A DNA stretch of 44,996 nucleotides, taken from contig PWXJ01000123.1 of assembly GCA_003561965.1 (NCBI GenBank), positions 1 to 44,996 of the forward strand. Direction: 5' to 3'. This stretch comes from PVC group bacterium (lineage in GTDB: Bacteria; Auribacterota; Erginobacteria; Erginobacterales; Erginobacteraceae). The notes beneath the pieces were generated by a model. It had not been told where the DNA came from. It saw only the letters and a list, made by a program, of their open reading frames with translations, and did no database searches. How positions within the stretch are numbered: position 1 is the stretch's first letter; each line of letters starts with the position of its first letter. This document shows, piece after piece, positions 5,154 to 26,100 of this stretch. Position numbers and translations under genes: made by a program.

Positions 5154-6286
5154 GGTCGGGTTCCTCCGGTAATTGCTTCCAAAAAACGGACCGCCGTCGC
5201 CCGGGGCCCGTAGTGTTTCAGCGCCCAGTCCCGCCCGGCCGCCGAGATCCCCTCCAGCCACCCGGGGTCGTCGGCCAGGCGCCGGACGGTCCGGTCGAGG
5301 TTCTCCGGGGAGAGGCCGAGGTAGTGGACCCCGTTGACCGGAAGCACCGGGGGGGCGAGCCCGTAACTTTCGAAGTCGAGATGGACGGCGGCCGCCCCGG
5401 CGGCCAGCGTCTCCCAGAACCGCCAGCTCTCCCACTGGGAGACCCTTCGGGATTCGGGGTCGGGCCGCCGGCCCAGCCGGGCCGCCAGCCGTTCGCCCCG
5501 GGGGCGGCGGAGCAACCGGGGGAGGGAGGGGAGGAAGAAACCGCTGAATGCGGCCGAGGCCGCCGACTCCTTCAGCCGCCGGAAGTAGGCCGGGTGGTGG
5601 CGGCGCCCGGTCTGCTCCCAGAAGAGGCGGGCTTCGGGGTCGGCCGGGGCCTCCTCCCACCCTTCCGCCGTCCGGTCGAGAGGGAGGACCGGGGCCAGCC
5701 GGGGGTAGAAGACCTTCTCGGCCATCGTCCGGACCGGGTGGGGGAGTCGGAAGTTGGCCAGCAGGACCCGCCGCCGGGCGGAGAAGGGTCCGGCGGGCGC
5801 GGCGGCGGCGATAATCCGTCGGGAGAGCCCGAAGGCCCAGGGACGGAAATTTTTCGGGTAGTAACAGTTCCGGTTCCAGTGGCCGCGGAGGATGCAATCG
5901 AAGCGGGAAAAGTCCCGCCGCCAGGACGGGGTGACGTGTCCGTCGGAGAGATCGAGACAGACCGCCAGGTGTCTCCGCCCGGGGCGGACCAGCCGGGGAG
6001 GGAACTTACCCCCGGAGGAGAACCAGCAACGGTCGATGACCGCCACCCGGCAGTCTTCCTGACCGACCCGGGGGTCTTTCCGGAAGAGGTAGTCATTCTC
6101 CCCCCGCCCGGTCCGCCAGTAGTCCCGGTTGGAAAAATAGGGGATCCCCAGCTCGCCCAGCCCCTCGGCCAGGCAGACCGCCGCGTGCTGGTAGACCGCC
6201 CGGTCGGGCGGGCCGGGGGGAGCGAGGTGGAAATACACCGGGCCGGTAAAACCTCCGGGAATTTTTCTTCCGCCGGTCTCGGACAT
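5150..6286 (-). CDS. Glycosyltransferase-like protein (GT1-type C-terminal domain), function unknown
   Basis: 378-aa ORF with non-degenerate composition. The C-terminal ETLAAGAAAVHLDFE...VHYLGLSPENLDRTVRRLADDPGWLEGISAAGRDWALKHYGP resembles the Glyco_trans_1_2-type C-terminus. It is translationally coupled (GTGA) to the ASST-like gene downstream. Confidence 0.45.
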   Translation of the reverse strand: MSETGGRKIPGGFTGPVYFHLAPPGPPDRAVYQHAAVCLAEGLGELGIPYFSNRDYWRTGRGENDYLFRKDPRVGQEDCRVAVIDRCWFSSGGKFPPRLVRPGRRHLAVCLDLSDGHVTPSWRRDFSRFDCILRGHWNRNCYYPKNFRPWAFGLSRRIIAAAAPAGPFSARRRVLLANFRLPHPVRTMAEKVFYPRLAPVLPLDRTAEGWEEAPADPEARLFWEQTGRRHHPAYFRRLKESAASAAFSGFFLPSLPRLLRRPRGERLAARLGRRPDPESRRVSQWESWRFWETLAAGAAAVHLDFESYGLAPPVLPVNGVHYLGLSPENLDRTVRRLADDPGWLEGISAAGRDWALKHYGPRATAVRFLEAITGGTRP

Positions 6287-7652: not shown

Positions 7653-8579
7653 TCAAAGGCTGTCCGGCCTTTCGAACTCTTTCAGCAGCCGGGGAAGGTT
7701 GGTCCGCCGCCCGCCGGTCCCCGCCGGGGTGTCCGCCCAGAGACGGCGGGAGATAAGCCGGGGATTTCCCGTCTCCGGCCCCCCGAAGACCAGGGTGAGA
7801 AAAACATATCGCTCCAGGAGCCGGGCGAGAAGATCCGCCGGGGCCCGGAAACCGGCGAAGGGAAAGGCGAAGGGAGCCCGGGCCTGCCCGGAGAGTTTCA
7901 GGACCGCCCGGGTCGAACCGACGATCTCCTCCTCCAGTTCCGCCTCCCCCAGTCCGTCGAGCGGGGTGTGGAGACGGCTGTGGCCGCCGATGGTGAAGCC
8001 GTCGGCGGCCAGCCTCCTCACCTCCTCCTCTTCCAGGTAGGGGCGCCGCCGACTCAAGTATTCATCCGGATCGACTCCCAGTTCCCGGCAGGCCCGGGCG
8101 AGAATTTCCCCGTCGCCGGGACCCAGTCCCCGGAGGGCCGCCGCCGCGGCCGGCCGTCCGGGCAGGGGCGAATCGAGCAAGGCTTCCAACCGTCGCAGCG
8201 GACCGCCCAGCCGGCGGCGGGGGAGCCGGTTCAATCGGGAGAGGGCCAGGGCGGCGGCGTTCCGGTAAGCCAGCCGGCGGTTGCCGACCAGGGCCGAGGG
8301 GACGAAGAAGACCGCCGGAACCCGGTGTTCGAGCAGCAGCGGACGAACCTCGGTGAAGCACTCCCGGTAACCGTCGTCGAAGGTGAGCAGGACCGAGTCC
8401 GGCGGGAGAGGACGGCCGGCTTCCAGGTATTCCACAACTTCATCGTGGGAAAGGATCCGGCGGCGGTTTTTCAGGAACCGGAGGTCGGCGGCGAAGGCCC
8501 GGGGGGACTTGCAGCGATAGAGCGGCCGGAGATGGGGGGGTTCCCGGGGAGAGATCAGGTGGTAGAAGAGAACGATCAT
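7653..8579 (-). CDS. Polysaccharide deacetylase (NodB/CE4-like) family protein
   Basis: LLTFDDGYRECFTEVRPLLLEHRVPAVFFV is the classical NodB-homology motif 1 region. A later GGHSRLH fits the His motif. Confidence 0.75.
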   Translation of the reverse strand: MIVLFYHLISPREPPHLRPLYRCKSPRAFAADLRFLKNRRRILSHDEVVEYLEAGRPLPPDSVLLTFDDGYRECFTEVRPLLLEHRVPAVFFVPSALVGNRRLAYRNAAALALSRLNRLPRRRLGGPLRRLEALLDSPLPGRPAAAAALRGLGPGDGEILARACRELGVDPDEYLSRRRPYLEEEEVRRLAADGFTIGGHSRLHTPLDGLGEAELEEEIVGSTRAVLKLSGQARAPFAFPFAGFRAPADLLARLLERYVFLTLVFGGPETGNPRLISRRLWADTPAGTGGRRTNLPRLLKEFERPDSL

Positions 8580-8632: not shown

Positions 8633-9676
8633 TCAGGTGAAGGCGGTGTCGCCGTCGCAGTATTGCAGCCGGATCTCCCCGGCGGCTTTCGCCAGGGGGC
8701 TGTCCGGGTTCCGGAGGTCACCGAGGTAGGGCCGCCGGCGGGTCCGGGCGAAGCGAAAAAGAAGGGAACGCCGGGCCCGGGAGGAGATCAGTTCCCCGGG
8801 GATATTGACAATATCGGCCCGGTATTTCCCGGCCCGGCGGAGGGCGAAGGGAAGAATCGATTGCACGTCGCCCGGTGACGAGATCCGGTAATCGAGGATC
8901 TTCATCGTCCTCTCCCGGGAGGTGGCGGAGAGGGAGAGAACCAGGTAACCGCGGTAGTCATTGTCGCCGCCGAAGATCTCGAAGGCGGTCATCCGGAACA
9001 GGCGACGCCGGTGGGTGAAGAGGTATCCCCACCCGGCCTCCCCCCGGTCCGCGGACTCGGACACCCAGGGATATTCCAGCATCCAGTTGACCACCTTCGG
9101 GCCCCGGTAAAATTCCGCCGGGGGCGAAGCCGGGGTCACGAAGGGGACGGCTTCCTCCCGAACCCGAACGGTCGGGCGGAAGGTTAATCCCGGCGGCGGG
9201 GCGGGGGTGAATAACCGACAGGCAGAACCCCTCCAGGACCCGGGTATTTTCTTCAGGTTGAGCCGCCAGTACCGGTAACTCCCCAGTTCCGAGGCCCCCA
9301 GACGGAGGATCAGCTTCCCGGCCGCCGGGGCGACATCGGTATAGACGGTTTCCGAAAGTCGGCGCCCGAAATGCCGGCCCATCAGGAACCCGGCCGCGGT
9401 CCGTCGGAAGTCGGGGTGGAGGTACCAGGTCGATCCCCAGTAAACCTTGCTCAGGTTCCCGCCCCGGCGGAGCCGGCCGGGGAGCACCCCCTGGTAGCCG
9501 ATCAGCCGGCTTCCGGAGTAAACCACGAAGAGGCCGATATCTCCCGGGTCGGCGCAGGGGTTGCGGACCTGGGCCCGGGCCTGCCGGGGGGTGATCGGAA
9601 TGACATCGTCCTCGCTTCTCTCCCGGAAGAACCGGGAGGCGAAATCCTCCAGGTTTCCGACCCGGATCTCCTCCAC
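8633..9676 (-). CDS. Hypothetical protein, possibly a GNAT/FemAB-like acyltransferase
   Basis: 347-aa ORF with normal composition in a glycan gene neighbourhood. The N-terminal region (GLFVVYSGSRLIGYQGVLPG) is reminiscent of the GNAT fold. The assignment is weak. Confidence 0.4.
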   Translation of the reverse strand: MEEIRVGNLEDFASRFFRERSEDDVIPITPRQARAQVRNPCADPGDIGLFVVYSGSRLIGYQGVLPGRLRRGGNLSKVYWGSTWYLHPDFRRTAAGFLMGRHFGRRLSETVYTDVAPAAGKLILRLGASELGSYRYWRLNLKKIPGSWRGSACRLFTPAPPPGLTFRPTVRVREEAVPFVTPASPPAEFYRGPKVVNWMLEYPWVSESADRGEAGWGYLFTHRRRLFRMTAFEIFGGDNDYRGYLVLSLSATSRERTMKILDYRISSPGDVQSILPFALRRAGKYRADIVNIPGELISSRARRSLLFRFARTRRRPYLGDLRNPDSPLAKAAGEIRLQYCDGDTAFT

Positions 9677-16682: not shown

Positions 16683-17528
16683 CTAAATCTGGCAGGCGGG
16701 ACAGAAGTGGGCGGTGCGGCCGGCGACCCGGGCGGTGGCGACCGGCTCGGAGCAGCGGGGGCAGGGGAGCCCCGGCTTCTGGTAGACCTTCAACTTCTCC
16801 TGGAAGGTCCCCAGCTCACCGGCGGTGTTGACGTACTGGCGGTCGGCGGCGCTGGTGCCAAAGCACCTGATCGCTTCCCGCAGGACCTCCCGGACGCTCT
16901 TCACCAGCTTGCCCGCTTCGGCTTCGGTGATGGAGCCGGCCGGGCGGAGGGGGTGGATCCCGGACCGGAAGAGGGCCTCGTCGGTGTAGATGTTGCCCAG
17001 CCCGGCCACCACCTTCTGGTCGAGGAGGACCGCCTTGACCGGGCCCTTCCGGCCCCGGAGGCTCTCCCGGAGGCGGGCCGGGGTCCAGCCGCGCTCCAGC
17101 GGTTCGGGGCCGAGGGCGAAAGGGTTGACCCGCGTCTCCCCCTCCTCTTCCGAGAAGAGGTAGACCTCGCCGAATTTCCGGGGGTCGACGAAGCAGAGTT
17201 CCTCACCTCCCTCCAGGCGGATCACCAGGCGGGTGTGGGAATACCGGGGACCGCCGGGCGGCCGGAAGAGGAGCTGTCCGGACATCCCCAGGTGAACGAT
17301 CAGGGTCCGGCCGTCGTCGAGGTTGAAAAGCAGGTACTTGGCCCGCCGTCCGATGGAGACGATCTTCCGCCCGGCCAGCCTCCGGAGAAACTTCCGGCTG
17401 CAGGAGCAGCGGCGGATCACCCGGCAGCCCCGGGGGTCGGGGGGGATGGATACCCGCTCAATCTTCTTCCCCTCGATCCGGGAGGCCAGCTCCCGCCGGA
17501 TCGTCTCGACTTCCGGCAGCTCAGGCAC
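16683..17528 (-). CDS. mutM: Formamidopyrimidine-DNA glycosylase (Fpg/MutM)
   Basis: N-terminal (M)PELPEVETIRREL with the catalytic Pro2/Glu3. H2TH region. C-terminal zinc finger CPRC...CPAC. GTG start at 17526-17528. Confidence 0.9.
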   Translation of the reverse strand: MPELPEVETIRRELASRIEGKKIERVSIPPDPRGCRVIRRCSCSRKFLRRLAGRKIVSIGRRAKYLLFNLDDGRTLIVHLGMSGQLLFRPPGGPRYSHTRLVIRLEGGEELCFVDPRKFGEVYLFSEEEGETRVNPFALGPEPLERGWTPARLRESLRGRKGPVKAVLLDQKVVAGLGNIYTDEALFRSGIHPLRPAGSITEAEAGKLVKSVREVLREAIRCFGTSAADRQYVNTAGELGTFQEKLKVYQKPGLPCPRCSEPVATARVAGRTAHFCPACQI

Positions 17529-17555
17529 TATTCCCTATTCCCTATTCCCCATTCC
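17528..17555. repeat. Heptamer tandem repeat CTATTCC x3 + CCATTCC (minus strand: GGAATGG GGAATAG x3)
   Basis: Read directly. It occupies almost the whole 32-bp gap between the TPR gene stop (17561) and the mutM GTG start (17528). Confidence 0.9.
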
Positions 17556-17560
17556 CCGAA

Positions 17561-18913
17561 TCAAACGGGAAGGGAGGCCTCGACGGCCTCGGCCTGGCGG
17601 AGGCTGACCCGGGCGCCTTCCCAGTCGCCGAGTTTCCTGTAGGCCCGGGCCAGGACCCGGTAGCCGGCGGCCTTGTCCCGGACGAACTTCTCCGGGGTCT
17701 GCTCCAGCCTCCGGTTGAGGAGTTCGATCGCCCGGGCCGGGTAGCCGTTGAAGACCTCGACCTCGGCCCGGTTCACCGCCACCCGGACGTTGCCGGGAAA
17801 CATCTTCTCCAGCAGCTTGAGGGTCGCGGCGGCCCCGGCCATCTCCCGGGCCTCGATCTTCTCCTCGGCCAGGGTGATGAAGGCGACGTAGGCGTCGGGG
17901 GCGGAGCGGAGGGAATCTGACAGCTCCCGGCAGAACCCGGCCTCTCCGGCTTGACCCCTCCGGCGGAGGGTTTCGGCGAGGAGGCGGTAGCCCCGCTCCA
18001 GCTCCCAGCGGTAGTAATAGGCCGTCCCCCGGATGCCGGCCCGGAGGGAACTTTCGGCGGCTTCGGGGTCGCCCCGGAGGAGGGCGATCTCGCCCCGAGC
18101 CAGGGCGGACCGGGAGTTGTTCCGGTAAAGCTTTTCTATCTTCTCCAGGATCTCCTCCGCCCGGTCGAGATCGCCTTCCTCGATCGTGAACTCGCAGAGG
18201 TTGATCAGGGCGGCGAAGGAGTTGGGACGTTCGGCCAGGATCAGTTCGATCTGCTCCCGGGCGGCCCCGTATTTTTTCTGCCGGGCGTAGGCCAGGGCCA
18301 GGGTCAGCCTCAGCTCGCGGTCGCCCTCCCCGAGGGAGAAGGCCTTCTCCAGCCAGCGGGCGGCCTGACGGAACTGGTCGGCCTTGAAGTGAAACCGGCC
18401 CAGGTCCCGGGCCCGACGGTAGTCAAGCCCGTATTTTCTCACCAGCTTCTTCAGGGCCTTGAGGGTGCCGGGGATGTCCATCGCCTCCTTGCAGACGAAG
18501 ACCGTCCGCTCCAGGCTCTGCTCCTCCAGGGGGTGGTCCTCCTCGACCCGCCGGTACATCCGGACCGCCCGCCCGGGCTGCCCGGAACGGACATAGTGCC
18601 TCTCCAGCTTCTCGTAGGCGAGGAAACTCTCGGGGAAGAGGGAGATCACCTGTTTCCAGGTCCGGGCGGCGGCGGCGGGGTAACCCCCCGCCTGCTGGAC
18701 CCGGGCCAGGTTCTCGAGCAGGCCCTGGTCGCCGGGCAGCTGCTTCAGACCGGCCCGGAGGACCCGGGAGGCGAGCCGGGGCGAGCCGCTCCCGCTGAGC
18801 AGCCGGGCCATCTCCTTGTAGGTGGAGGCCCGCCCGGGCGCGGTGTCGAGGTCGGCCTTGAGCCGGGTCAGTTTCGGGGTCAGAACTTTCTCGGGTAATC
18901 GGATCGTCGGCAT
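17561..18913 (-). CDS. Tetratricopeptide (TPR) repeat protein
   Basis: 450 aa of helical A/L/R/E-rich repeats with the TPR signature spacing (e.g. ALAYARQKKYGAAREQIELIL). Paralogous to the upstream gene. Confidence 0.7.
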   Translation of the reverse strand: MPTIRLPEKVLTPKLTRLKADLDTAPGRASTYKEMARLLSGSGSPRLASRVLRAGLKQLPGDQGLLENLARVQQAGGYPAAAARTWKQVISLFPESFLAYEKLERHYVRSGQPGRAVRMYRRVEEDHPLEEQSLERTVFVCKEAMDIPGTLKALKKLVRKYGLDYRRARDLGRFHFKADQFRQAARWLEKAFSLGEGDRELRLTLALAYARQKKYGAAREQIELILAERPNSFAALINLCEFTIEEGDLDRAEEILEKIEKLYRNNSRSALARGEIALLRGDPEAAESSLRAGIRGTAYYYRWELERGYRLLAETLRRRGQAGEAGFCRELSDSLRSAPDAYVAFITLAEEKIEAREMAGAAATLKLLEKMFPGNVRVAVNRAEVEVFNGYPARAIELLNRRLEQTPEKFVRDKAAGYRVLARAYRKLGDWEGARVSLRQAEAVEASLPV

Positions 18914-18936
18914 TGCTTTCTCCCTGTTTGAGCGGT

Positions 18937-20307
18937 TTATTTTTTCGGCGGGGCGGCGGCCAGTTCATCGGCCCGGCGGCGGAACTCCCGGGCTTTATCC
19001 TTCTCTCCCTTCTCCCCGTGAAGCTCGGCCAGCAGCTCCAGGGCCCGGATCTTGTCCTTCAGGTAGCGCGGGTTGTCCTCCCGGGAAGCCTCGGCGGCGA
19101 ACCCGAGGGCCCGGTCGATATCTCCCCTCAGCCGGGCGATCTCGGCCTTCTTGATCCGGGCCAGGGAGTTCACCGGGTAGCGCTCGAGGAGCCCGTCGGC
19201 GACCTTCTCGGCCAGGTCGAGGTCGCCGGCTTCGATCAGTTCGTCGGCCGCCGCGATGGTGGTCGAGAAGTAGTCGGAGCTTCCCTTCAGGCGGTCGGCC
19301 ATCAGGGAATGGTACTTCGCCTCCTCCTTCCGGCCGAGGGCGGCCGAAGCTTCCGCCTGGACCCGGTGTCCGAGGCTGAGCTCGTCGGTGTAGTAAAACG
19401 GGGTCTCGGCGGCCGCCGGCCGGCAGAGTTCGAGGGCCTCTTCGGGCTTCCCCTCTTCCAGGAGGATCCGGGCCCGGTTGATCGCCACCCGGGAGTTTCC
19501 GGGGAACTTGCGGTCGATGGCCTTGAAGTGCTCCTCGGCCGACTGCGGCTTGCCGTCCTCGATATCCATCTCCGCCAGGTGGATGTGGGAGCCGTACCAG
19601 CCCGGGGTGTGGCTGAGGATATCCCGGAAGGCCTTTCGGGCCTCTTTCCGCCGGCCGGTCTTCCGCTTCGAGACCCCGATCATCAGCTCGAGGTCGGGGT
19701 TGCGGGGCTTGAGCCGGAGGGCTTTCTTGTAGGCGGCGATCGCCGACTTCAGGTTGCCGGTCTTCTCGTAGAGTCGGCCCAGGTCCTTGAACCGCATATA
19801 CTCGGGACCGAACTCCCGGATCAGCTTCTTCAGGTCGGAGCGGGCGGAGACGAAATTCTCCAGGGAGGTCTCCAGCCGGACCAGTTTTTTCAGGGCCCGT
19901 TCCCGCTGCGGATTTTCCTTCTTGACGGCCCGGTAAATTTTGATCATCTCGGCTTGCCGGTCCTGCCGGGAATAGATCCGCTCCAGCCGCTCGTAGGGGA
20001 CCCATTCCTCCGGGTACTGACGGATCAGCTTCCGGTATTCCCGGATCGCCATCCGGTCGTCTCCGGCCGCCTCGTAGAGCCGGGCGATCTGTTTCCGAAT
20101 ATCCAGGAATTCCCGGGGGCGATCTTCGGGGACCTTTTTCAGGGCCCGGCGGAGGACAATCACCCCTTCCCCGGGGCGTTTTCTCTTTTCCAGGAGTCGG
20201 GCCAGTTTGCGATAACGGGAGATTCGTTCGGGGTTGTCGGAGATATCCTTCCAGAGCCGGAGTTCCTCTCCCGGCTGGAGGTTGAGGCCGGCGGGTGTCT
20301 TGAGCAT
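18937..20307 (-). CDS. Tetratricopeptide (TPR) repeat protein
   Basis: 456-aa TPR-like repeats (e.g. GRLYEKTGNLKSAIAAYKKALRLKP). Same architecture as 17561-18913. Confidence 0.7.
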   Translation of the reverse strand: MLKTPAGLNLQPGEELRLWKDISDNPERISRYRKLARLLEKRKRPGEGVIVLRRALKKVPEDRPREFLDIRKQIARLYEAAGDDRMAIREYRKLIRQYPEEWVPYERLERIYSRQDRQAEMIKIYRAVKKENPQRERALKKLVRLETSLENFVSARSDLKKLIREFGPEYMRFKDLGRLYEKTGNLKSAIAAYKKALRLKPRNPDLELMIGVSKRKTGRRKEARKAFRDILSHTPGWYGSHIHLAEMDIEDGKPQSAEEHFKAIDRKFPGNSRVAINRARILLEEGKPEEALELCRPAAAETPFYYTDELSLGHRVQAEASAALGRKEEAKYHSLMADRLKGSSDYFSTTIAAADELIEAGDLDLAEKVADGLLERYPVNSLARIKKAEIARLRGDIDRALGFAAEASREDNPRYLKDKIRALELLAELHGEKGEKDKAREFRRRADELAAAPPKK

Positions 20308-20426
20308 AGAAATAAACCTCGTGTTTTCGAATTAAGCGCGGAAGGCCGGGATTCGGACCCGATCGAGCCCACCCGTTCCCGAAAAAGGGGGGATATAATA
20401 ATCACTGGCGGGGAATTGTCAACACC

Positions 20427-20612
20427 TTATCCACACTTTTTCACGGTTTTTCCACAGGTTATGCACATAATGGGTTAAACCGGGCTGAACCCGTCAATCG
20501 ACTCAGGGGACTGGAGTTACAGGCTCCAAGCGGCCGGAAAACCCGAAAGACGAAAACAGAGACCCCGGCGGCAGTTACTGCCTGTGGACAGGGGTGGATA
20601 ATCGGTGGATAA
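20427..20612. promoter_or_regulatory. Cluster of six DnaA-box-like 9-mers (candidate oriC or DnaA regulatory region)
   Basis: Plus strand: TTATCCACA 20427-35 (perfect), TTTTCCACA 20448-56, TTATGCACA 20459-67. Reverse orientation: TGTGGACAG 20583-91, GGTGGATAA 20593-601, GGTGGATAA 20604-12. All lie in the 365-bp non-coding gap 20308-20672. Confidence 0.55.
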
Positions 20613-20672
20613 CTTTTCCGGCCTTCCCGACACGGGGATACATCCGTCGCCGGACGGTGGGGACGGGAGATT

Positions 20673-21554
20673 TCAATCTTCGCCGGAGGGGCTCCCTTTC
20701 AGCCCGATCCGGGAGAACTCGGACGAATCGAGGTCGAAGTAAAGGAGTTCATCCGTTAGCGGGGTTCCCCGGCCGAGGAGGAGTTTCACCGCTTCCATCG
20801 CCTCCAGGGAGGCGGCCACGGCCGGGGTGGGGGTCGGGGTGCCGAGGACGGACTCGATCCCCCGGGGCGACTCTTCCTCCCGGCCGCGATAAACGGCGGC
20901 GGAGAGGGTCTCCGCCCCGGGCCGGACGGTCGATACCTGGCCCATAAACCCCCCGATCGCCCCGTGGACCAGGGGGACGCCGAGCCGGGAGGCGGCTTTT
21001 TCGAGGAGGATCCGGACCGGGATCCGGTCGAGGGCGTCGATCACCACTTCGGCGCCGGAGAGGAGTCCGGCGGAGTTTTCGGCGGTGAGGAAGACCGGGT
21101 GGGCGGCGACCTCGATCGCCGAGTTGACCTCCGCCGCCCGCTCGGCCGCCCGCTCGACCTTCTTCCGGCCGACGTCCCCCTCCCGGCAGAGGAGCTGGCG
21201 GTTGAGGTTGTCCTCGGTAAAGCTGTCTCCGTCGATCAGGACCAGCCTCCCGACCCCGATCCGGGCCAGCAGCTCGATGATCAACCCGCCCAACCCCCCG
21301 GCCCCGACCACCGCGGCCGTGGAGGAGAGGAGGCGGGCCTGCCCCTCGAACCCCAGGGAGGCGATATTGCGGTAGTAACGGCAGGGGATGACCTTCCGGC
21401 GGAGGGCGGCGATCTCGACCTCCCGCTCGGAGATGGAGAGTTCGGAGGCGATCCTTCGGACCTCGGCGAGTCCGATCCCGGTATATTCCCCGCCCCCGGA
21501 GAGGGAGACCGGGCCGCCGGCCCCGTCAATTAATCGGGCGAGGTCGCTCTTCAT
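20673..21554 (-). CDS. ThiF/MoeB/HesA-family E1-like adenylyltransferase
   Basis: AAVVGAGGLGG nucleotide-binding loop, DGDSFTEDNLNRQ and VIDALD motifs typical of ThiF/MoeB. It carries an extra N-terminal extension of about 70 aa. Confidence 0.75.
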   Translation of the reverse strand: MKSDLARLIDGAGGPVSLSGGGEYTGIGLAEVRRIASELSISEREVEIAALRRKVIPCRYYRNIASLGFEGQARLLSSTAAVVGAGGLGGLIIELLARIGVGRLVLIDGDSFTEDNLNRQLLCREGDVGRKKVERAAERAAEVNSAIEVAAHPVFLTAENSAGLLSGAEVVIDALDRIPVRILLEKAASRLGVPLVHGAIGGFMGQVSTVRPGAETLSAAVYRGREEESPRGIESVLGTPTPTPAVAASLEAMEAVKLLLGRGTPLTDELLYFDLDSSEFSRIGLKGSPSGED

Positions 21555-21578
21555 CAGGAAAATAATCCCAAGTAAACC

Positions 21579-23405
21579 TTATTCCACGGTGACCGACTTG
21601 GCCAGGTTGCGGGGCTTGTCGATATCGCAGCCCCGCTCCCGGGCGACGTAGTAGGCGAAGAGCTGGAGGGGGATGGTGTTGATCAGCGGCTGGAGGATAT
21701 CGATCGAACGGGGGACGGGGATGACCTCATCGACGTGGCCGGCGATTTCCTCGTCCTCCTCGACGGCCACCGCCACCACCTTCCCCTCCCGGGCCTTGAT
21801 CTCCTGGATATTATTGATCATCTTGTCGTAGGTGGAGTCCCGGGGGACGACGGCCACGGTGGGGAATTCCGGGTCGATCAGCGAGATCGGACCGTGCTTC
21901 ATCTCCCCGGCGGCGTACCCCTCGGCGTGGATATAGGAGATCTCCTTGAGTTTCAGTGCCCCTTCCATCGCGATCGGGAAATTGTAGAGCCGGCCGATAT
22001 AGAGGTAATTGTCATAACGCGCGTAACGGCGGGCGATCTCCTCGATCCGGGGAGCGGATTCCAGAACCCGGCGGAGCTGGCCGGAGAGTTTCTTCAACGC
22101 CCGGGTGATGAAGAGCCCCTCGGTCAGGGAGAGGCGCTGGTAGCGGCCGACCAGGAGGGCCATCAGGGTCAGGACCACGCACTGGGAGAGGAAGACCTTG
22201 GTCGAGGCGACCCCGATCTCCGGGCCGGCGTGGTTGTAGACCCCGGCCTCGGTCTCCTTGGCGATGGTCGAGCCGACCACGTTGACCAGCCCCAGGCAGA
22301 GGGCGCCCTTCCGCTTGGCCTCCCGGATGGCGGCCAGGGTATCGGCGGTCTCCCCCGACTGGGAGATCGCCAGGACCGCCGTCTTCTCGTCGAGTCTCAG
22401 ATTGCGGTAGCGGAACTCCGAGGCGTACTCGACCTCGACCGAGAAGCCGGTGATCTTTTCGAAGACGTAACGGGCCAGGAGCCCGGCGTAGTAGGAACTC
22501 CCGCAGGAGACGAAGTGGATCCTCTCCATCGACTTCAGCCGGTCGAGAACCCCCTCCAGCCCGCCCAGACGGGAGACCCCCTCCCCCTCGAGGAGCCTCC
22601 CCCGCAGGGCGTTCTCCACCGCGTCGGGCTGCTCGAAGATCTCCTTGAGCATAAAATGCTCGTAACCCTTCTTATCGGCGGCATCCGCCCCCCACTCGAC
22701 CGTCTCGGTCTCCCGGACCACCAGCCGGTCCTGGAAGTCGCTGATCGCGTAGTCGTGGCGGTTGAGGACCGCCAGTTCGTTGTCCTTGAGGTGGATGACC
22801 TGGTTGGTGTGGCGGATCAGGGCGTTGACGTCGGAGGCGGCCAGGAACTCCCCCTTCCCGATCCCCAGGATCAGGGGGGAGCCCCGGCGGGCGAGGACGA
22901 TCCTATCCGGCGAATCCCGGTGGAAGAGGGCGATCCCGAAGGTCCCCCGGACCACTCCCAGGACCTTCTTCACCGCGGCGGCCAGGTCGCCCTCGTAGTA
23001 CTCCTCGATCAGGTGGACCAGGACCTCGGTGTCGGTCTCGGACTTGAAGGTGTGGCCCTCCTTCTTCAGTTCTTCCTTGAGGACCAGGTAGTTCTCGATG
23101 ATCCCGTTGTGGACCAGAAAGATCTTGTCGTTCTCCCCGGTCTGGGGGTGGGCGTTGGCCACGCTGGGTTTTCCGTGGGTGGCCCACCGGGTGTGGGCGA
23201 TCCCCATCGTGCCCCGGGGCCCGGCCTCCCGGGCTTTCTCCTCCAGGCGGCTGACCTTGCCCACCTCCTTGACCAGGCAGGTATTCTCCCCGTCGGCCAC
23301 GGCCAGGCCGGCGGAGTCGTAGCCCCGGTACTCCAGGCGCTTGAGCCCCTCGAGCAGGATCGGGGCCGCCTCCCGGGGCCCGATATAGCAGACTATTCCA
23401 CACAT
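21579..23405 (-). CDS. glmS: Glutamine--fructose-6-phosphate aminotransferase GlmS
   Basis: Start reassigned to MCGIVCYIG (Cys2 Ntn nucleophile) at 23405. There are two SIS domains, and the C-terminus ends ...KPRNLAKSVTVE. Confidence 0.95.
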   Translation of the reverse strand: MCGIVCYIGPREAAPILLEGLKRLEYRGYDSAGLAVADGENTCLVKEVGKVSRLEEKAREAGPRGTMGIAHTRWATHGKPSVANAHPQTGENDKIFLVHNGIIENYLVLKEELKKEGHTFKSETDTEVLVHLIEEYYEGDLAAAVKKVLGVVRGTFGIALFHRDSPDRIVLARRGSPLILGIGKGEFLAASDVNALIRHTNQVIHLKDNELAVLNRHDYAISDFQDRLVVRETETVEWGADAADKKGYEHFMLKEIFEQPDAVENALRGRLLEGEGVSRLGGLEGVLDRLKSMERIHFVSCGSSYYAGLLARYVFEKITGFSVEVEYASEFRYRNLRLDEKTAVLAISQSGETADTLAAIREAKRKGALCLGLVNVVGSTIAKETEAGVYNHAGPEIGVASTKVFLSQCVVLTLMALLVGRYQRLSLTEGLFITRALKKLSGQLRRVLESAPRIEEIARRYARYDNYLYIGRLYNFPIAMEGALKLKEISYIHAEGYAAGEMKHGPISLIDPEFPTVAVVPRDSTYDKMINNIQEIKAREGKVVAVAVEEDEEIAGHVDEVIPVPRSIDILQPLINTIPLQLFAYYVARERGCDIDKPRNLAKSVTVE

Positions 23406-23587
23406 ATAAGCAATCCTCGCGGTAAATGATTCCGGCAACTTTTTTCTAACGCCCTAATATAGCAGAGAATCGGGCTGAATCATTATTTTTTTCCGGGGGC
23501 TGGAGGAAAAATCGGAGATCAAGATTTGACGGTGCCAGCTTCAGGGAGGCGCCGGATAATTAATAAGCATTAATTTTGATTTATGTT

Positions 23588-23616
23588 TTGACATCTGAAC
23601 CCGGCTTGGTTAAACT
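23588..23616 (+). promoter_or_regulatory. Candidate sigma70-type promoter (TTGACA - 17 nt - TAAACT)
   Basis: Perfect -35 hexamer at 23588-93 and a 17-nt spacer. The -10-like TAAACT is at 23611-16, about 50 nt upstream of the lipoprotein gene. Confidence 0.35.
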
Positions 23617-23668
23617 TGACTCAACCATTAACGGGGGTTGCTGCCCCCAGAACCGGAAGGAGGCTGGA

Positions 23669-24043
23669 ATGAAGACCGCGGTCTTGATTGGACTGGCCGG
23701 GCTGCTGGTTCTGTCCGTTGGTTGTTCGGGGGGTGTCTGGGTCGGTTCCGACACTTTCAAACCAAATATCAACTCCGCCACGGTGACCCAGTACCGGAAC
23801 GAAGCCCCGAATTACGAGGTGTTGGGCACGGTCACGGCAAATGTTGAGGCAATGAGCATCCTGGGCATTGTCGCCACGGGTACTGACGGTCAGGGGGTTT
23901 TGTGGAGAGAAGCCCTGAGGCAGTATCCCGAAGCCACCGGTCTGAAGGACATCAGCCAGAGCAACGAATTTTTGAACATCCTCTGGTTCGTCTACACCGG
24001 TGTCAAAACTACATATTACGGGACCGTGGTCAGGGAGAAGTAG
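23669..24043 (+). CDS. Small hypothetical lipoprotein (124 aa)
   Basis: Start reassigned to ATG 23669 (GGAAGGAGG upstream). The signal peptide has lipobox LSVGC. Confidence 0.6.
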   Translation: MKTAVLIGLAGLLVLSVGCSGGVWVGSDTFKPNINSATVTQYRNEAPNYEVLGTVTANVEAMSILGIVATGTDGQGVLWREALRQYPEATGLKDISQSNEFLNILWFVYTGVKTTYYGTVVREK

Positions 24044-24070
24044 ACGTTATTACCCGGAGGGTTGGAGAGG

Positions 24071-24103
24071 GCCCCCCGCCGGACTCGCCGGCGGGGGGCT
24101 TTC
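24071..24103. terminator. Bidirectional Rho-independent terminator-like hairpin
   Basis: A perfect 12-bp GC stem GCCCCCCGCCGG / CCGGCGGGGGGC with loop ACTCG, followed by TTTCTATT. It lies between the convergent lipoprotein gene (+) and mnmG (-). Confidence 0.7.
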
Positions 24104-24116
24104 TATTATATCCGGA

Positions 24117-25985
24117 CTACTTGCCCAGCTTCTTCAGCCAGACCATCAATATCGAGACCGCCGCCGGGGTGATCCCGGGGATCCGGGAGGCCTGGGCCAG
24201 GTCGACCGGACGGAGGCGGGAGAGTTTTTCCCGGACCTCGGCCTTCAGTCCGGGCACGGAGGCGTAATCCAGATCGGGGGGGAGGGCGATCTCTTCCAGG
24301 CTCCTCAGCCGGGCGGCCTCGGTTTTCTGCCGTTGGATAAAGCCCTCGTACTTGATCTCGATCTCCGCCTGCCGGGCCACCTCCGGGGGGAGCGCGGCCA
24401 GCTCGGGATCGAGGCCGGCCAGGTCGTCGAGACCGACCCCGGGGCGGCGGAGGAGGTCCCGGAGGCTGGTTTTCTTACCTATAGGGGCGGACTCCAGACG
24501 GGCCAGGAGGCGATTGACCTCCTCCCCGGGGGAGACCCGCCGTTCGGCCAGAAGCCGGACCGTCCGGGAGATCTCCCGGCGCTGGCGCTCGATCCGGCCG
24601 GCCTCATCCGGGGGGACCAGGCCCAGCCGGCAGCCGACCTCGCGGAGCCTGAGATCGGCGTTGTCCTCCCGGAGCAGCAGCCGGTACTCGGCCCGCGAGG
24701 TGAAAATCCGGTAGGGTTCGTCGGTACCCTTGGTGACCAGGTCGTCGATCAGGACCCCGATGTAGGCCCGGTCCCGGGAGAGGACCAGTGGCGGTTCCCC
24801 GCGGAGGGAGAGGGCGGCGTTGATCCCCGCCATCAGCCCCTGGGCGGCCGCCTCCTCGTAACCGGTGGTCCCGTTGACCTGGCCCGCCAGGTAGAGCCCG
24901 GCGACCGGCTTGCTCTCCAGGGTCGGGTAGAGCTGGGTGGGATCGACGTAGTCGTGCTCGATCCCGTAGCCCGGCCGGACGATCTGAGCCTCCTCCAACC
25001 CGCAGATCGACCGGACCAGCTCCCGCTGGAGGTCGATCGGGAGGCTGGTCGAGATTCCGTTAGGATAGTACTCGACGGTGTCGGCCCCTTCCGGTTCGAG
25101 GAAGATATGGTGCCGGTCGCGGTCGGGGAAACGGACCACCTTGTCCTCGATCGAGGGGCAGTAACGCACCCCCCGCCCCCGGATCGCCCCCGAGAAGAGG
25201 GGGGAACGGTCGAGACCCCGGGAGATTATCCGGTGGGTCTCCGGGTTGGTCCAGGTGACGTGGCAGGGGAGCTGTTCCAGCTCCACCGGGGGAGAGGTGA
25301 TCGAAAAGGGTTCGGGGTCCCGGTCGCCTTCCTGGACTTCCAGGCGGGAGAAGTCGATCGTCCGGCCGTCCAGCCGGGGGCAGGTCCCGGTCTTGAACCG
25401 GCCCCGGGTGAAGCCGAGCCGACCCAGGGATTCGGCCAGCCCGGAGGACGCGGGGTCCCCCATCCTCCCCCCGGGAAAATTTTCCCGGCCGACGTGAATC
25501 AGCCCCCGGAGGAAAGTCCCGGGGGCGATGATCACCCGCCCCCCGGAAAACTCCTCCCCCGCCGCCGTCCTCACCCCGGCCGCCCGGCCGGAGGAGACGA
25601 CGACCTCCTCCACCAGGGCCTGATAGACGCCAAGGTTATCGCTGGATTCGCCCCGACGCTTCATCGCCGGCTGGTAGCGGCGGCGGTCGACCTGGACCCG
25701 GGTCGCCCGGACGGCCGGTCCCTTGCGGAGGTTGAGCGTTCGATACTGAAGGGCGCACTCGTCGGCGGCCCGGGCCATCTCGCCGCCCAGGGCGTCGATC
25801 TCCTTCACCAGCTGGCCCTTGCCCAGGCCGCCGATTGCCGGGTTGCAGGAGAGGGCGCCGATCCGGTCGAGGTTGCCGGTGATCAGCAGGGTCGAGCAGC
25901 CCATCCGGGCGGCCGCCAGCGCCGCCTCGATCCCGGCGTGCCCGGCCCCGATTACAATCAGGTCATAATCGACTCTGGTATTCAT
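24117..25985 (-). CDS. mnmG: tRNA uridine-5-carboxymethylaminomethyl modification enzyme MnmG (GidA)
   Basis: Start reassigned to MNTRVDYDLIVIGAGHAGIEAA (FAD GxGxxG). Full-length similarity to GidA, including GQVNGTTGYEEAAAQG. Confidence 0.95.
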   Translation of the reverse strand: MNTRVDYDLIVIGAGHAGIEAALAAARMGCSTLLITGNLDRIGALSCNPAIGGLGKGQLVKEIDALGGEMARAADECALQYRTLNLRKGPAVRATRVQVDRRRYQPAMKRRGESSDNLGVYQALVEEVVVSSGRAAGVRTAAGEEFSGGRVIIAPGTFLRGLIHVGRENFPGGRMGDPASSGLAESLGRLGFTRGRFKTGTCPRLDGRTIDFSRLEVQEGDRDPEPFSITSPPVELEQLPCHVTWTNPETHRIISRGLDRSPLFSGAIRGRGVRYCPSIEDKVVRFPDRDRHHIFLEPEGADTVEYYPNGISTSLPIDLQRELVRSICGLEEAQIVRPGYGIEHDYVDPTQLYPTLESKPVAGLYLAGQVNGTTGYEEAAAQGLMAGINAALSLRGEPPLVLSRDRAYIGVLIDDLVTKGTDEPYRIFTSRAEYRLLLREDNADLRLREVGCRLGLVPPDEAGRIERQRREISRTVRLLAERRVSPGEEVNRLLARLESAPIGKKTSLRDLLRRPGVGLDDLAGLDPELAALPPEVARQAEIEIKYEGFIQRQKTEAARLRSLEEIALPPDLDYASVPGLKAEVREKLSRLRPVDLAQASRIPGITPAAVSILMVWLKKLGK

Positions 25986-26100
25986 ATTCGCGGATAAGCA
26001 ACAACTGGCCGGCAAATGGTATCATATCGCCCGGCTTTTTCTATTATTGTCTCCGGCCCGCTGTGTTACTATCTCCGCCCGCCGGTAAAGGTAACGGAAG

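Follow-up and report, generated by a model that had tools for sequence, protein, structure and literature searches.

The stretch of DNA analyzed here (the window) is an entire contig of 44,996 bp from an uncultured bacterium of the Auribacterota (PVC), whose nearest relatives are Candidatus Auribacterota metagenome-assembled genomes (MAGs) of the PVC group, such as Ca. Erginobacter occultus. Open reading frames were filtered by codon-position GC and then scanned against Pfam and NCBIfam. Between the stop codon of a thiF gene and the start of a gene encoding a TPR protein lies a gap of 365 bp (20308-20672), which is non-coding and has a GC content of 0.54 compared with about 0.65 in the window, in agreement with the original prediction for this locus. 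The genes around the gap are as follows.

16683-20307, minus strand: predicted controlled operon TPR-TPR-fpg (Pfam, NCBIfam, paralogy and gene order)
18937-20307, minus strand: first operon gene, TPR protein of 456 aa
17561-18913, minus strand: second TPR protein of 450 aa, paralogous to the first (29% identity)
16683-17528, minus strand: fpg/mutM, third operon gene
20673-21554, minus strand: thiF/moeB-like adenylyltransferase gene, the upstream neighbor, whose 3′ end borders the element and which lies outside it
21579-23438, minus strand: glmS
24117-26015, minus strand: mnmG

The three operon genes are separated by only 23 bp and 32 bp. The TPR operon had been called divergent, but thiF and the TPR genes all lie on the minus strand in tandem. 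The distances to glmS (~1 kb) and mnmG (3.5 kb) are as previously described. Elsewhere the window carries genes of ordinary metabolism, and profile scans of the window found none of dnaA, dnaN, recF, gyrB, parAB, rsmG and rpmH, which bears out the earlier observation for the first two. An Rfam search in E-value mode over 19800-24600 returned nothing relevant to the gap, in which no intrinsic terminator was detected either. The apparent 680-bp gap between glmS and mnmG (23439-24116) was considered as a second origin candidate and discarded: it has no DnaA boxes and is occupied by a lipoprotein gene and a terminator hairpin. The former is a small unannotated lipoprotein-like gene on the plus strand (ATG at 23670, stop at 24044) with a signal peptide, a lipobox (LSVGC) and no match in Pfam or NCBIfam; the latter is a strong GC-rich hairpin (24066-24104) that is probably a bidirectional terminator.

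Six DnaA-box-like 9-mers lie within 186 bp of the thiF-TPR gap (20427-20612), five with at most 1 mismatch and one with 2 mismatches. They form two arrays of opposite orientation. Slot numbers below give the start of a box relative to the −35 hexamer of the promoter described further on.

20427-20435, plus strand: DnaA box TTATCCACA, perfect consensus, lattice slot −13
20437-20445, plus strand: degenerate lattice slot −23, TTTTTCACG, 3 mismatches, occupied by a better box in other lineages
20448-20456, plus strand: DnaA box TTTTCCACA, 1 mismatch, lattice slot −34
20459-20467, plus strand: DnaA box TTATGCACA, 1 mismatch, lattice slot −45
20570-20582: palindrome GGCAGTTACTGCC, abutting the distal array
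20583-20612, minus strand: distal array of three opposed boxes, with starts 11 and 10 bp apart

Read in the sense of the TPR gene, the perfect box (20427-20435) is TGTGGATAA. The distal boxes appear on the plus strand as TGTGGACAG (20583-20591) and GGTGGATAA (20593-20601 and 20604-20612), and on the minus strand as TTATCCACC, TTATCCACC and CTGTCCACA. All six 9-mers were thus found at the positions and with the mismatch counts originally reported.

We compared this density with chance expectation. Across the 44,996-bp window, TTATCCACA at 20427 is the sole perfect box, and 9 sites match it with at most 1 mismatch; 2.5 were expected, and none of 100 shuffles gave more than 7. The 186-bp stretch holds five of the 9. 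When the 365-bp gap itself was shuffled with preservation of dinucleotides, none of 20,000 shuffles contained at least three boxes, whereas five are observed. The DnaA-box cluster is real and far beyond chance, as had been proposed.

A GGCA(N5)TGCC palindrome, mostly GGCAAnnATTGCC, sits beside the third distal box; its conservation is limited to the six loci of the window clade (L001-L003, L046, L058 and the window). A second, dimeric DNA-binding protein may bind there. A sigma-54 reading of this palindrome was dropped on inspection of the sequence, as its spacing is wrong (GG-N8-GC, not GG-N10-GC).

The proximal array leads directly into a promoter. A promoter scan found, on the strand of the TPR gene and immediately after the perfect box, a sigma-70 promoter with 11 of 12 consensus matches.

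20416-20424, minus strand: −35 region TGTTGACAA, with the hexamer TTGACA at 20422-20417 (promoter scan)
20395-20400, minus strand: −10 hexamer TATTAT, 16 bp after the −35
20382-20392, minus strand: CCCCCCTTTTT tract directly downstream of the −10, comprising the discriminator and transcript start and kept in most homologues

Transcription is predicted to start near 20388 on the minus strand. Just 4 bp separate the perfect box from the −35 hexamer downstream of it. The proximal boxes follow an 11-bp lattice, one helical turn, that ends on this hexamer. The −35 region itself (TGTTGACAa) occupies the next lattice slot (−2), 11 bp past the perfect box, and differs from a DnaA box by 2 mismatches, one of them at a normally critical position. 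In alignment A1, TGTTGACA is invariant. We also considered the AT-rich GATTATTATAT as a DnaA-trio; this was rejected because its invariant TA..AT, at a fixed 16 bp from TTGACA, is the −10 hexamer, and because it is found at the TAA end of the box, which is the wrong side.

Searches of genomes and metagenomes, together with protein-anchored look-ups, provided eleven further homologous loci (L001-L003, L046, L058 and L069-L074), making twelve with the window. Their TPR proteins range from 81% down to 50% identity to that of the window, and their tetranucleotide signatures correlate with it at r = 0.76-0.97, compared with r ≤ 0.65 for all other loci. Gene order is retained as glmS, [thiF, thiS], boxes, TPR, TPR, fpg, and the TPR-TPR-fpg order is also found in L069-L074. 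The core promoter (TTGACA, 16 bp, TAnnAT) is present in 12 of 12 loci, 60-115 bp upstream of the ATG, with the boxes in a fixed register to it. Proximal boxes start at −45, −34/−35, −23/−24 and −13 relative to the −35 in all loci: slots −45, −34 and −13 are filled in the window clade, L071 and L074; −45, −34, −23 and −13 in L069; −24 and −13 in L070; and −35 and −24 in L072 and L073. Slot −13 is therefore occupied in 10 of the 12 loci, and a box with at most 2 mismatches is found at −23/−24 in L002, L046, L069, L070, L072 and L073. Judged by these alignments, there is a single 11-bp lattice of which different lineages fill different slots. Of the most distant loci, L072 and L073 have two boxes only, and L070 has only one box with at most 1 mismatch; all three keep the promoter.

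The distal array is less constant. The window clade retains it at 115-150 bp from the proximal array, L069 at 58 bp, L074 at 37 bp and L071 at 24 bp. No recognizable distal array was found in L070, which keeps one box with 2 mismatches, in L072, or in L073, whose sequence stops ~185 bp upstream of its boxes. Apart from the GGCAAnnATTGCC palindrome of the window clade, the nine spacers share no conserved motif. In L070 and L072, where thiF and thiS are both missing upstream, the boxes and promoter remain on the TPR gene.

Several features of these loci lie outside the element. The −10 of most of the 12 promoters runs straight into a CCCCC(C)TTTTT tract. This GC-rich discriminator, with the T run behind it, might confer sensitivity to growth rate or ppGpp. 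Several relatives have an ORF for a ThiS/MoaD-like sulfur carrier ending in GG between thiF and the boxes (L001, about 8310-8540; L003, about 5860-6100; L069, 9256-9483; L071, 9518-9706; L074, 1777-2004), which is missing from the window and L002. The mnmG gene is co-directional with glmS in the window (24117-26015) but divergent in L069 (3986-5893), L070 (5826-7706) and L071 (4536-6431). This suggests a local inversion of the single mnmG gene and insertion of the lipoprotein gene in the window lineage, and a search for flanking inverted repeats at mnmG found none. In L069, an integrase and two VapBC toxin-antitoxin pairs (1-2473) are inserted upstream of a Fer4_16 (QueG-like) gene beside mnmG, and short tandem GTTACGA(G/A)A(G/A) repeats (9600-9650) lie just upstream of the distal array; similar ACGAAG repeats are present in L074.

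We then considered whether the gap is an origin of replication, the headline candidate of the original prediction. As a chromosomal oriC, it would have DnaA assemble on both arrays, unwinding either the intervening or the adjoining DNA. Such a role is favored by two phased arrays with at least six conserved boxes, by mnmG at 3.5 kb, and by the short inter-array spacers of L069, L071 and L074, which are AT-richer than the genome. The promoter reading away from the boxes could also aid opening, as gidA transcription does at the E. coli origin. The locus further resembles E. coli oriC in its consensus R-type boxes, and oriC also has lower-affinity sites in helically phased arrays of opposite orientation. 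We checked the geometry of E. coli oriC: its outer boxes R1 and R4 point outward, and three AT-rich 13-mers lie by R1, beyond its ACA end. Here, in contrast, both arrays point inward, the spacer between them varies in length (24-150 bp) and sequence, and the lattice ends on a promoter. Nor is there an AT-rich unwinding element (DUE). Among 40-bp windows, GC content is lowest (0.33-0.38) in the boxes themselves or in the 5′ UTR, consistent with the earlier remark that a long element of this kind is lacking. The basal-unwinding (BUS) rule calls for a box with at most 2 mismatches and, on its ACA side, a spacer of 0-16 bp and at least three NAN trios (PMC8287927). No conserved box in the six window-clade loci has this arrangement beside it, and in the AT-richer lineages BUS matches occur at the rate of shuffled DNA (0.13-0.46 per box) and at positions that are not conserved.

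The genomic context does not favor an origin either. Linkage of origins to dnaA, dnaN and similar genes is common, if not universal, and none of dnaA, dnaN, recF, gyrB, parAB, rsmG and rpmH was found within 10-25 kb of the element at any of the loci. In the window, the 20 kb to each side contain no replication gene. With these genes missing and the orientation of mnmG varying among relatives, the analogy drawn earlier between the glmS/mnmG neighborhood and the E. coli origin is weak.

Strand composition was analyzed for a signature of replication. The coding strand strongly favors C at third codon positions, with a GC3 skew per gene of −0.15 in the window and −0.09 to −0.10 in L069 and L070, and of about 0 in the lower-GC L071 and L074. 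Because of this, raw GC-skew plots mostly trace gene orientation rather than replication. We regressed the top-strand GC3 skew of each gene on its orientation and on its side of the element. In the window, the side term at 20.4 kb is −0.002 ± 0.013, with the limited power of 10-25 kb per side. When 105 genes from five lineages were pooled, with synonymous sites effectively independent and again 10-25 kb per side and limited power, the orientation-corrected GC3 skew of the TPR-sense strand was +0.029 ± 0.013 upstream and +0.047 ± 0.012 downstream. The two sides share one sign, whereas at an origin the sign has to flip. No skew switch is seen at 20.4 kb in the window or in the five pooled lineages. 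Strand asymmetry does exist, and a single replichore appears to span the locus, the TPR-sense strand being the leading one. Finally, the promoter is kept where only two boxes (L072 and L073) or one good box (L070) are left, a reduction that an operator could readily undergo but that would hardly be expected of an essential origin. Altogether, the inward boxes, the lack of a DUE or trios, the unswitched skew, the missing replication genes and the dwindling of the boxes in relatives argue indirectly against a chromosomal origin at this locus, which we consider highly improbable.

Phased arrays of this kind are not restricted to these genomes. A metagenome scan with the invariant three-box pattern (ATAACCTGTGGAAA, N12-14, TGTGGATAA) recovered 41 loci with GC contents from 0.25 to 0.65, among which only L046 and L058 are homologous to the window. 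The pattern was thus abandoned as a lineage-specific marker, since 11-bp-phased arrays of this generic type recur across many phyla. Several pattern loci adjoin dnaA or sit between dnaA and dnaN. None of the arrays was accepted as the dnaA-linked origin of the Auribacterota lineage, given tetranucleotide correlations of r ≤ 0.57 against 0.76-0.97 for true relatives, and a DnaA regex scan of all collected loci found DnaA only in unrelated taxa. As far as these loci indicate, 11-bp-phased arrays are a general way to build DnaA-binding regions. Among L028-L068, TGTGGATAAcc units at an 11-bp phase, often in two opposed blocks, occur in many unrelated genomes. About 20 boxes lie beside dnaA in L039, L061 and L065; other arrays are upstream of nusA (L056) or rsmE (L038), or before unknown genes; and a TTGACA promoter comes right after the last box in L030, L050, L062 and L068.

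The two opposed arrays could instead serve to control DnaA itself, as a datA-like locus acting by titration or ATP hydrolysis, a DARS-like locus acting by nucleotide exchange, or a titrating cluster of the Bacillus type, with any effect on the TPR promoter secondary. E. coli datA, DARS1 and DARS2 are clusters of DnaA boxes outside the origin with oppositely oriented boxes, and the layout here, two opposed arrays and a spacer, resembles that of datA. However, an IHF-binding site lies between the essential boxes of datA, and both datA and DARS2 need such a site at a defined place. The IHF consensus (WATCAR-N4-TTR) has no match in any of the nine spacers, which share no motif. In the DARS core, boxes I-II(-III) are immediately adjacent and oppositely oriented, whereas here the arrays are 24-150 bp apart at a variable distance. 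The datA/DARS alternative offered by the original prediction is therefore not borne out in its specific form, for want of an IHF site and a conserved spacer. To our knowledge, none of the controls exemplified by datA, DARS, Hda, SeqA and the Soj type is known in this PVC phylum. In a more general form, some DnaA is necessarily bound by any high-affinity cluster, and Bacillus clusters both regulate their neighbors and restrain initiation (PMC3245932). The cluster may thus titrate DnaA as a side-effect. Yet two to six boxes make a small sink, the opposed array is missing in three lineages in which promoter-anchored boxes persist, and the exact −35 register in 12 of 12 loci has no rationale at a pure titration site. 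We consider DnaA control unlikely as the primary role of the locus.

The position of the distal array directly 3′ of thiF or thiS raises another explanation, in which it would act as a DnaA-dependent roadblock that ends thiF/thiS transcripts before the TPR promoter, leaving only the proximal array to regulate initiation. In E. coli, box-bound DnaA at asnC/mioC is reported to block RNA polymerase in an orientation-dependent manner. No intrinsic terminator was detected in the gap here. Two of the three lineages without the array (L070 and L072) also lack thiF/thiS upstream, although this correlation covers very few lineages, with L073 uninformative because its sequence ends so close to the boxes. 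The argument is purely inferential, and we regard a dedicated roadblock as very unlikely. Also quite unlikely, if slightly less so, is that the two convergent arrays constitute a locus devoted to handling DnaA, a nucleoprotein trap in which DnaA is sensed or reset and the repair operon gated, or, more radically, an unconventional origin that opens the spacer between inward filaments without a classical DUE.

The reading that best accounts for the locus was the first of the alternatives listed in the original prediction. The gap is probably a DnaA-controlled sigma-70 promoter of the TPR-TPR-fpg operon and thus a candidate transcriptional switch. This is backed by the fixed register of core promoter and boxes in the 12 loci and by their co-inheritance, as loss of thiF and thiS in L070 and L072 leaves the boxes in place at the TPR promoter. 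A distal array and spacer that are variable or absent are as expected of an auxiliary operator.

From this arrangement we propose a model in which DnaA would act at the gap as a transcription factor on a strong sigma-70 promoter, whose near-consensus core should need no activator. When active DnaA is abundant, it would oligomerize cooperatively along the lattice from the strong boxes at −13, −34 and −45. As the weak slots fill, namely −23 and that of the −35, for which TGTTGACAa would serve as the terminal low-affinity slot, the −35 would be occluded and the promoter repressed. Occlusion is a model, the −35 slot being a poor box with 2 mismatches, and DnaA binding at the boxes and its transcriptional effect are likewise predicted from the sequence. 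The distal array would be auxiliary: it could hold the complex together through DnaA-DnaA bridges or loops, or else stop thiF/thiS transcription from reading through. For the sign of regulation, we lean modestly toward repression. Activation has an appreciable but smaller chance and stays a live alternative since the strong boxes lie upstream of the −35, a layout shared with the activated promoters of sda in B. subtilis and gidA p1 in P. aeruginosa. Either way, the potential for replication initiation would be linked to expression of the operon with its 8-oxoguanine glycosylase Fpg, and the site would also soak up some DnaA, as Bacillus DnaA-box clusters do. Any physiological logic for such control is speculative.

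The locus would give the uncultured phylum Auribacterota its first candidate for membership in a DnaA regulon, tying replication-initiation potential to an operon with Fpg and two lineage-specific TPR proteins. It also calls for caution when origin predictors are run on MAGs, as a dense and conserved set of DnaA boxes close to mnmG can serve to switch transcription rather than mark an origin. With its end on the −35, the 11-bp lattice offers a natural template for studying how DnaA spreading plays out against RNA polymerase, whether in repression or activation.

DnaA-controlled promoters with box clusters are already known, and the present locus would add a case in Auribacterota. In B. subtilis, six DnaA-box clusters outside oriC, in the sda, ywlC, yydA, ywcI-vpr, gcp-ydiF and trmE-jag regions, regulate their neighbors; the effect of DnaA is activation at sda and repression at ywlC, yydA and others, and the clusters also hold back initiation (PMC3245932, PMC4447404). 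Like these, the locus described here is an intergenic multi-box array at a promoter, with cooperative DnaA binding known there and predicted here. It differs in belonging to another, uncultured phylum, in its TPR-TPR-fpg target, and in its strict 11-bp lattice in register with the −35 and its additional opposed array. In P. aeruginosa, five boxes known as "oriCII" lie upstream of gidA p1, from which DnaA activates gidAB-parAB (PMC13438810). There too, an origin-like box cluster sits just upstream of a promoter near mnmG (gidA). DnaA activates in that case, however, whereas we favor repression here, and the target there is gidAB-parAB near the real origin, while the genes controlled here would be unrelated ones to which mnmG is merely a neighbor.
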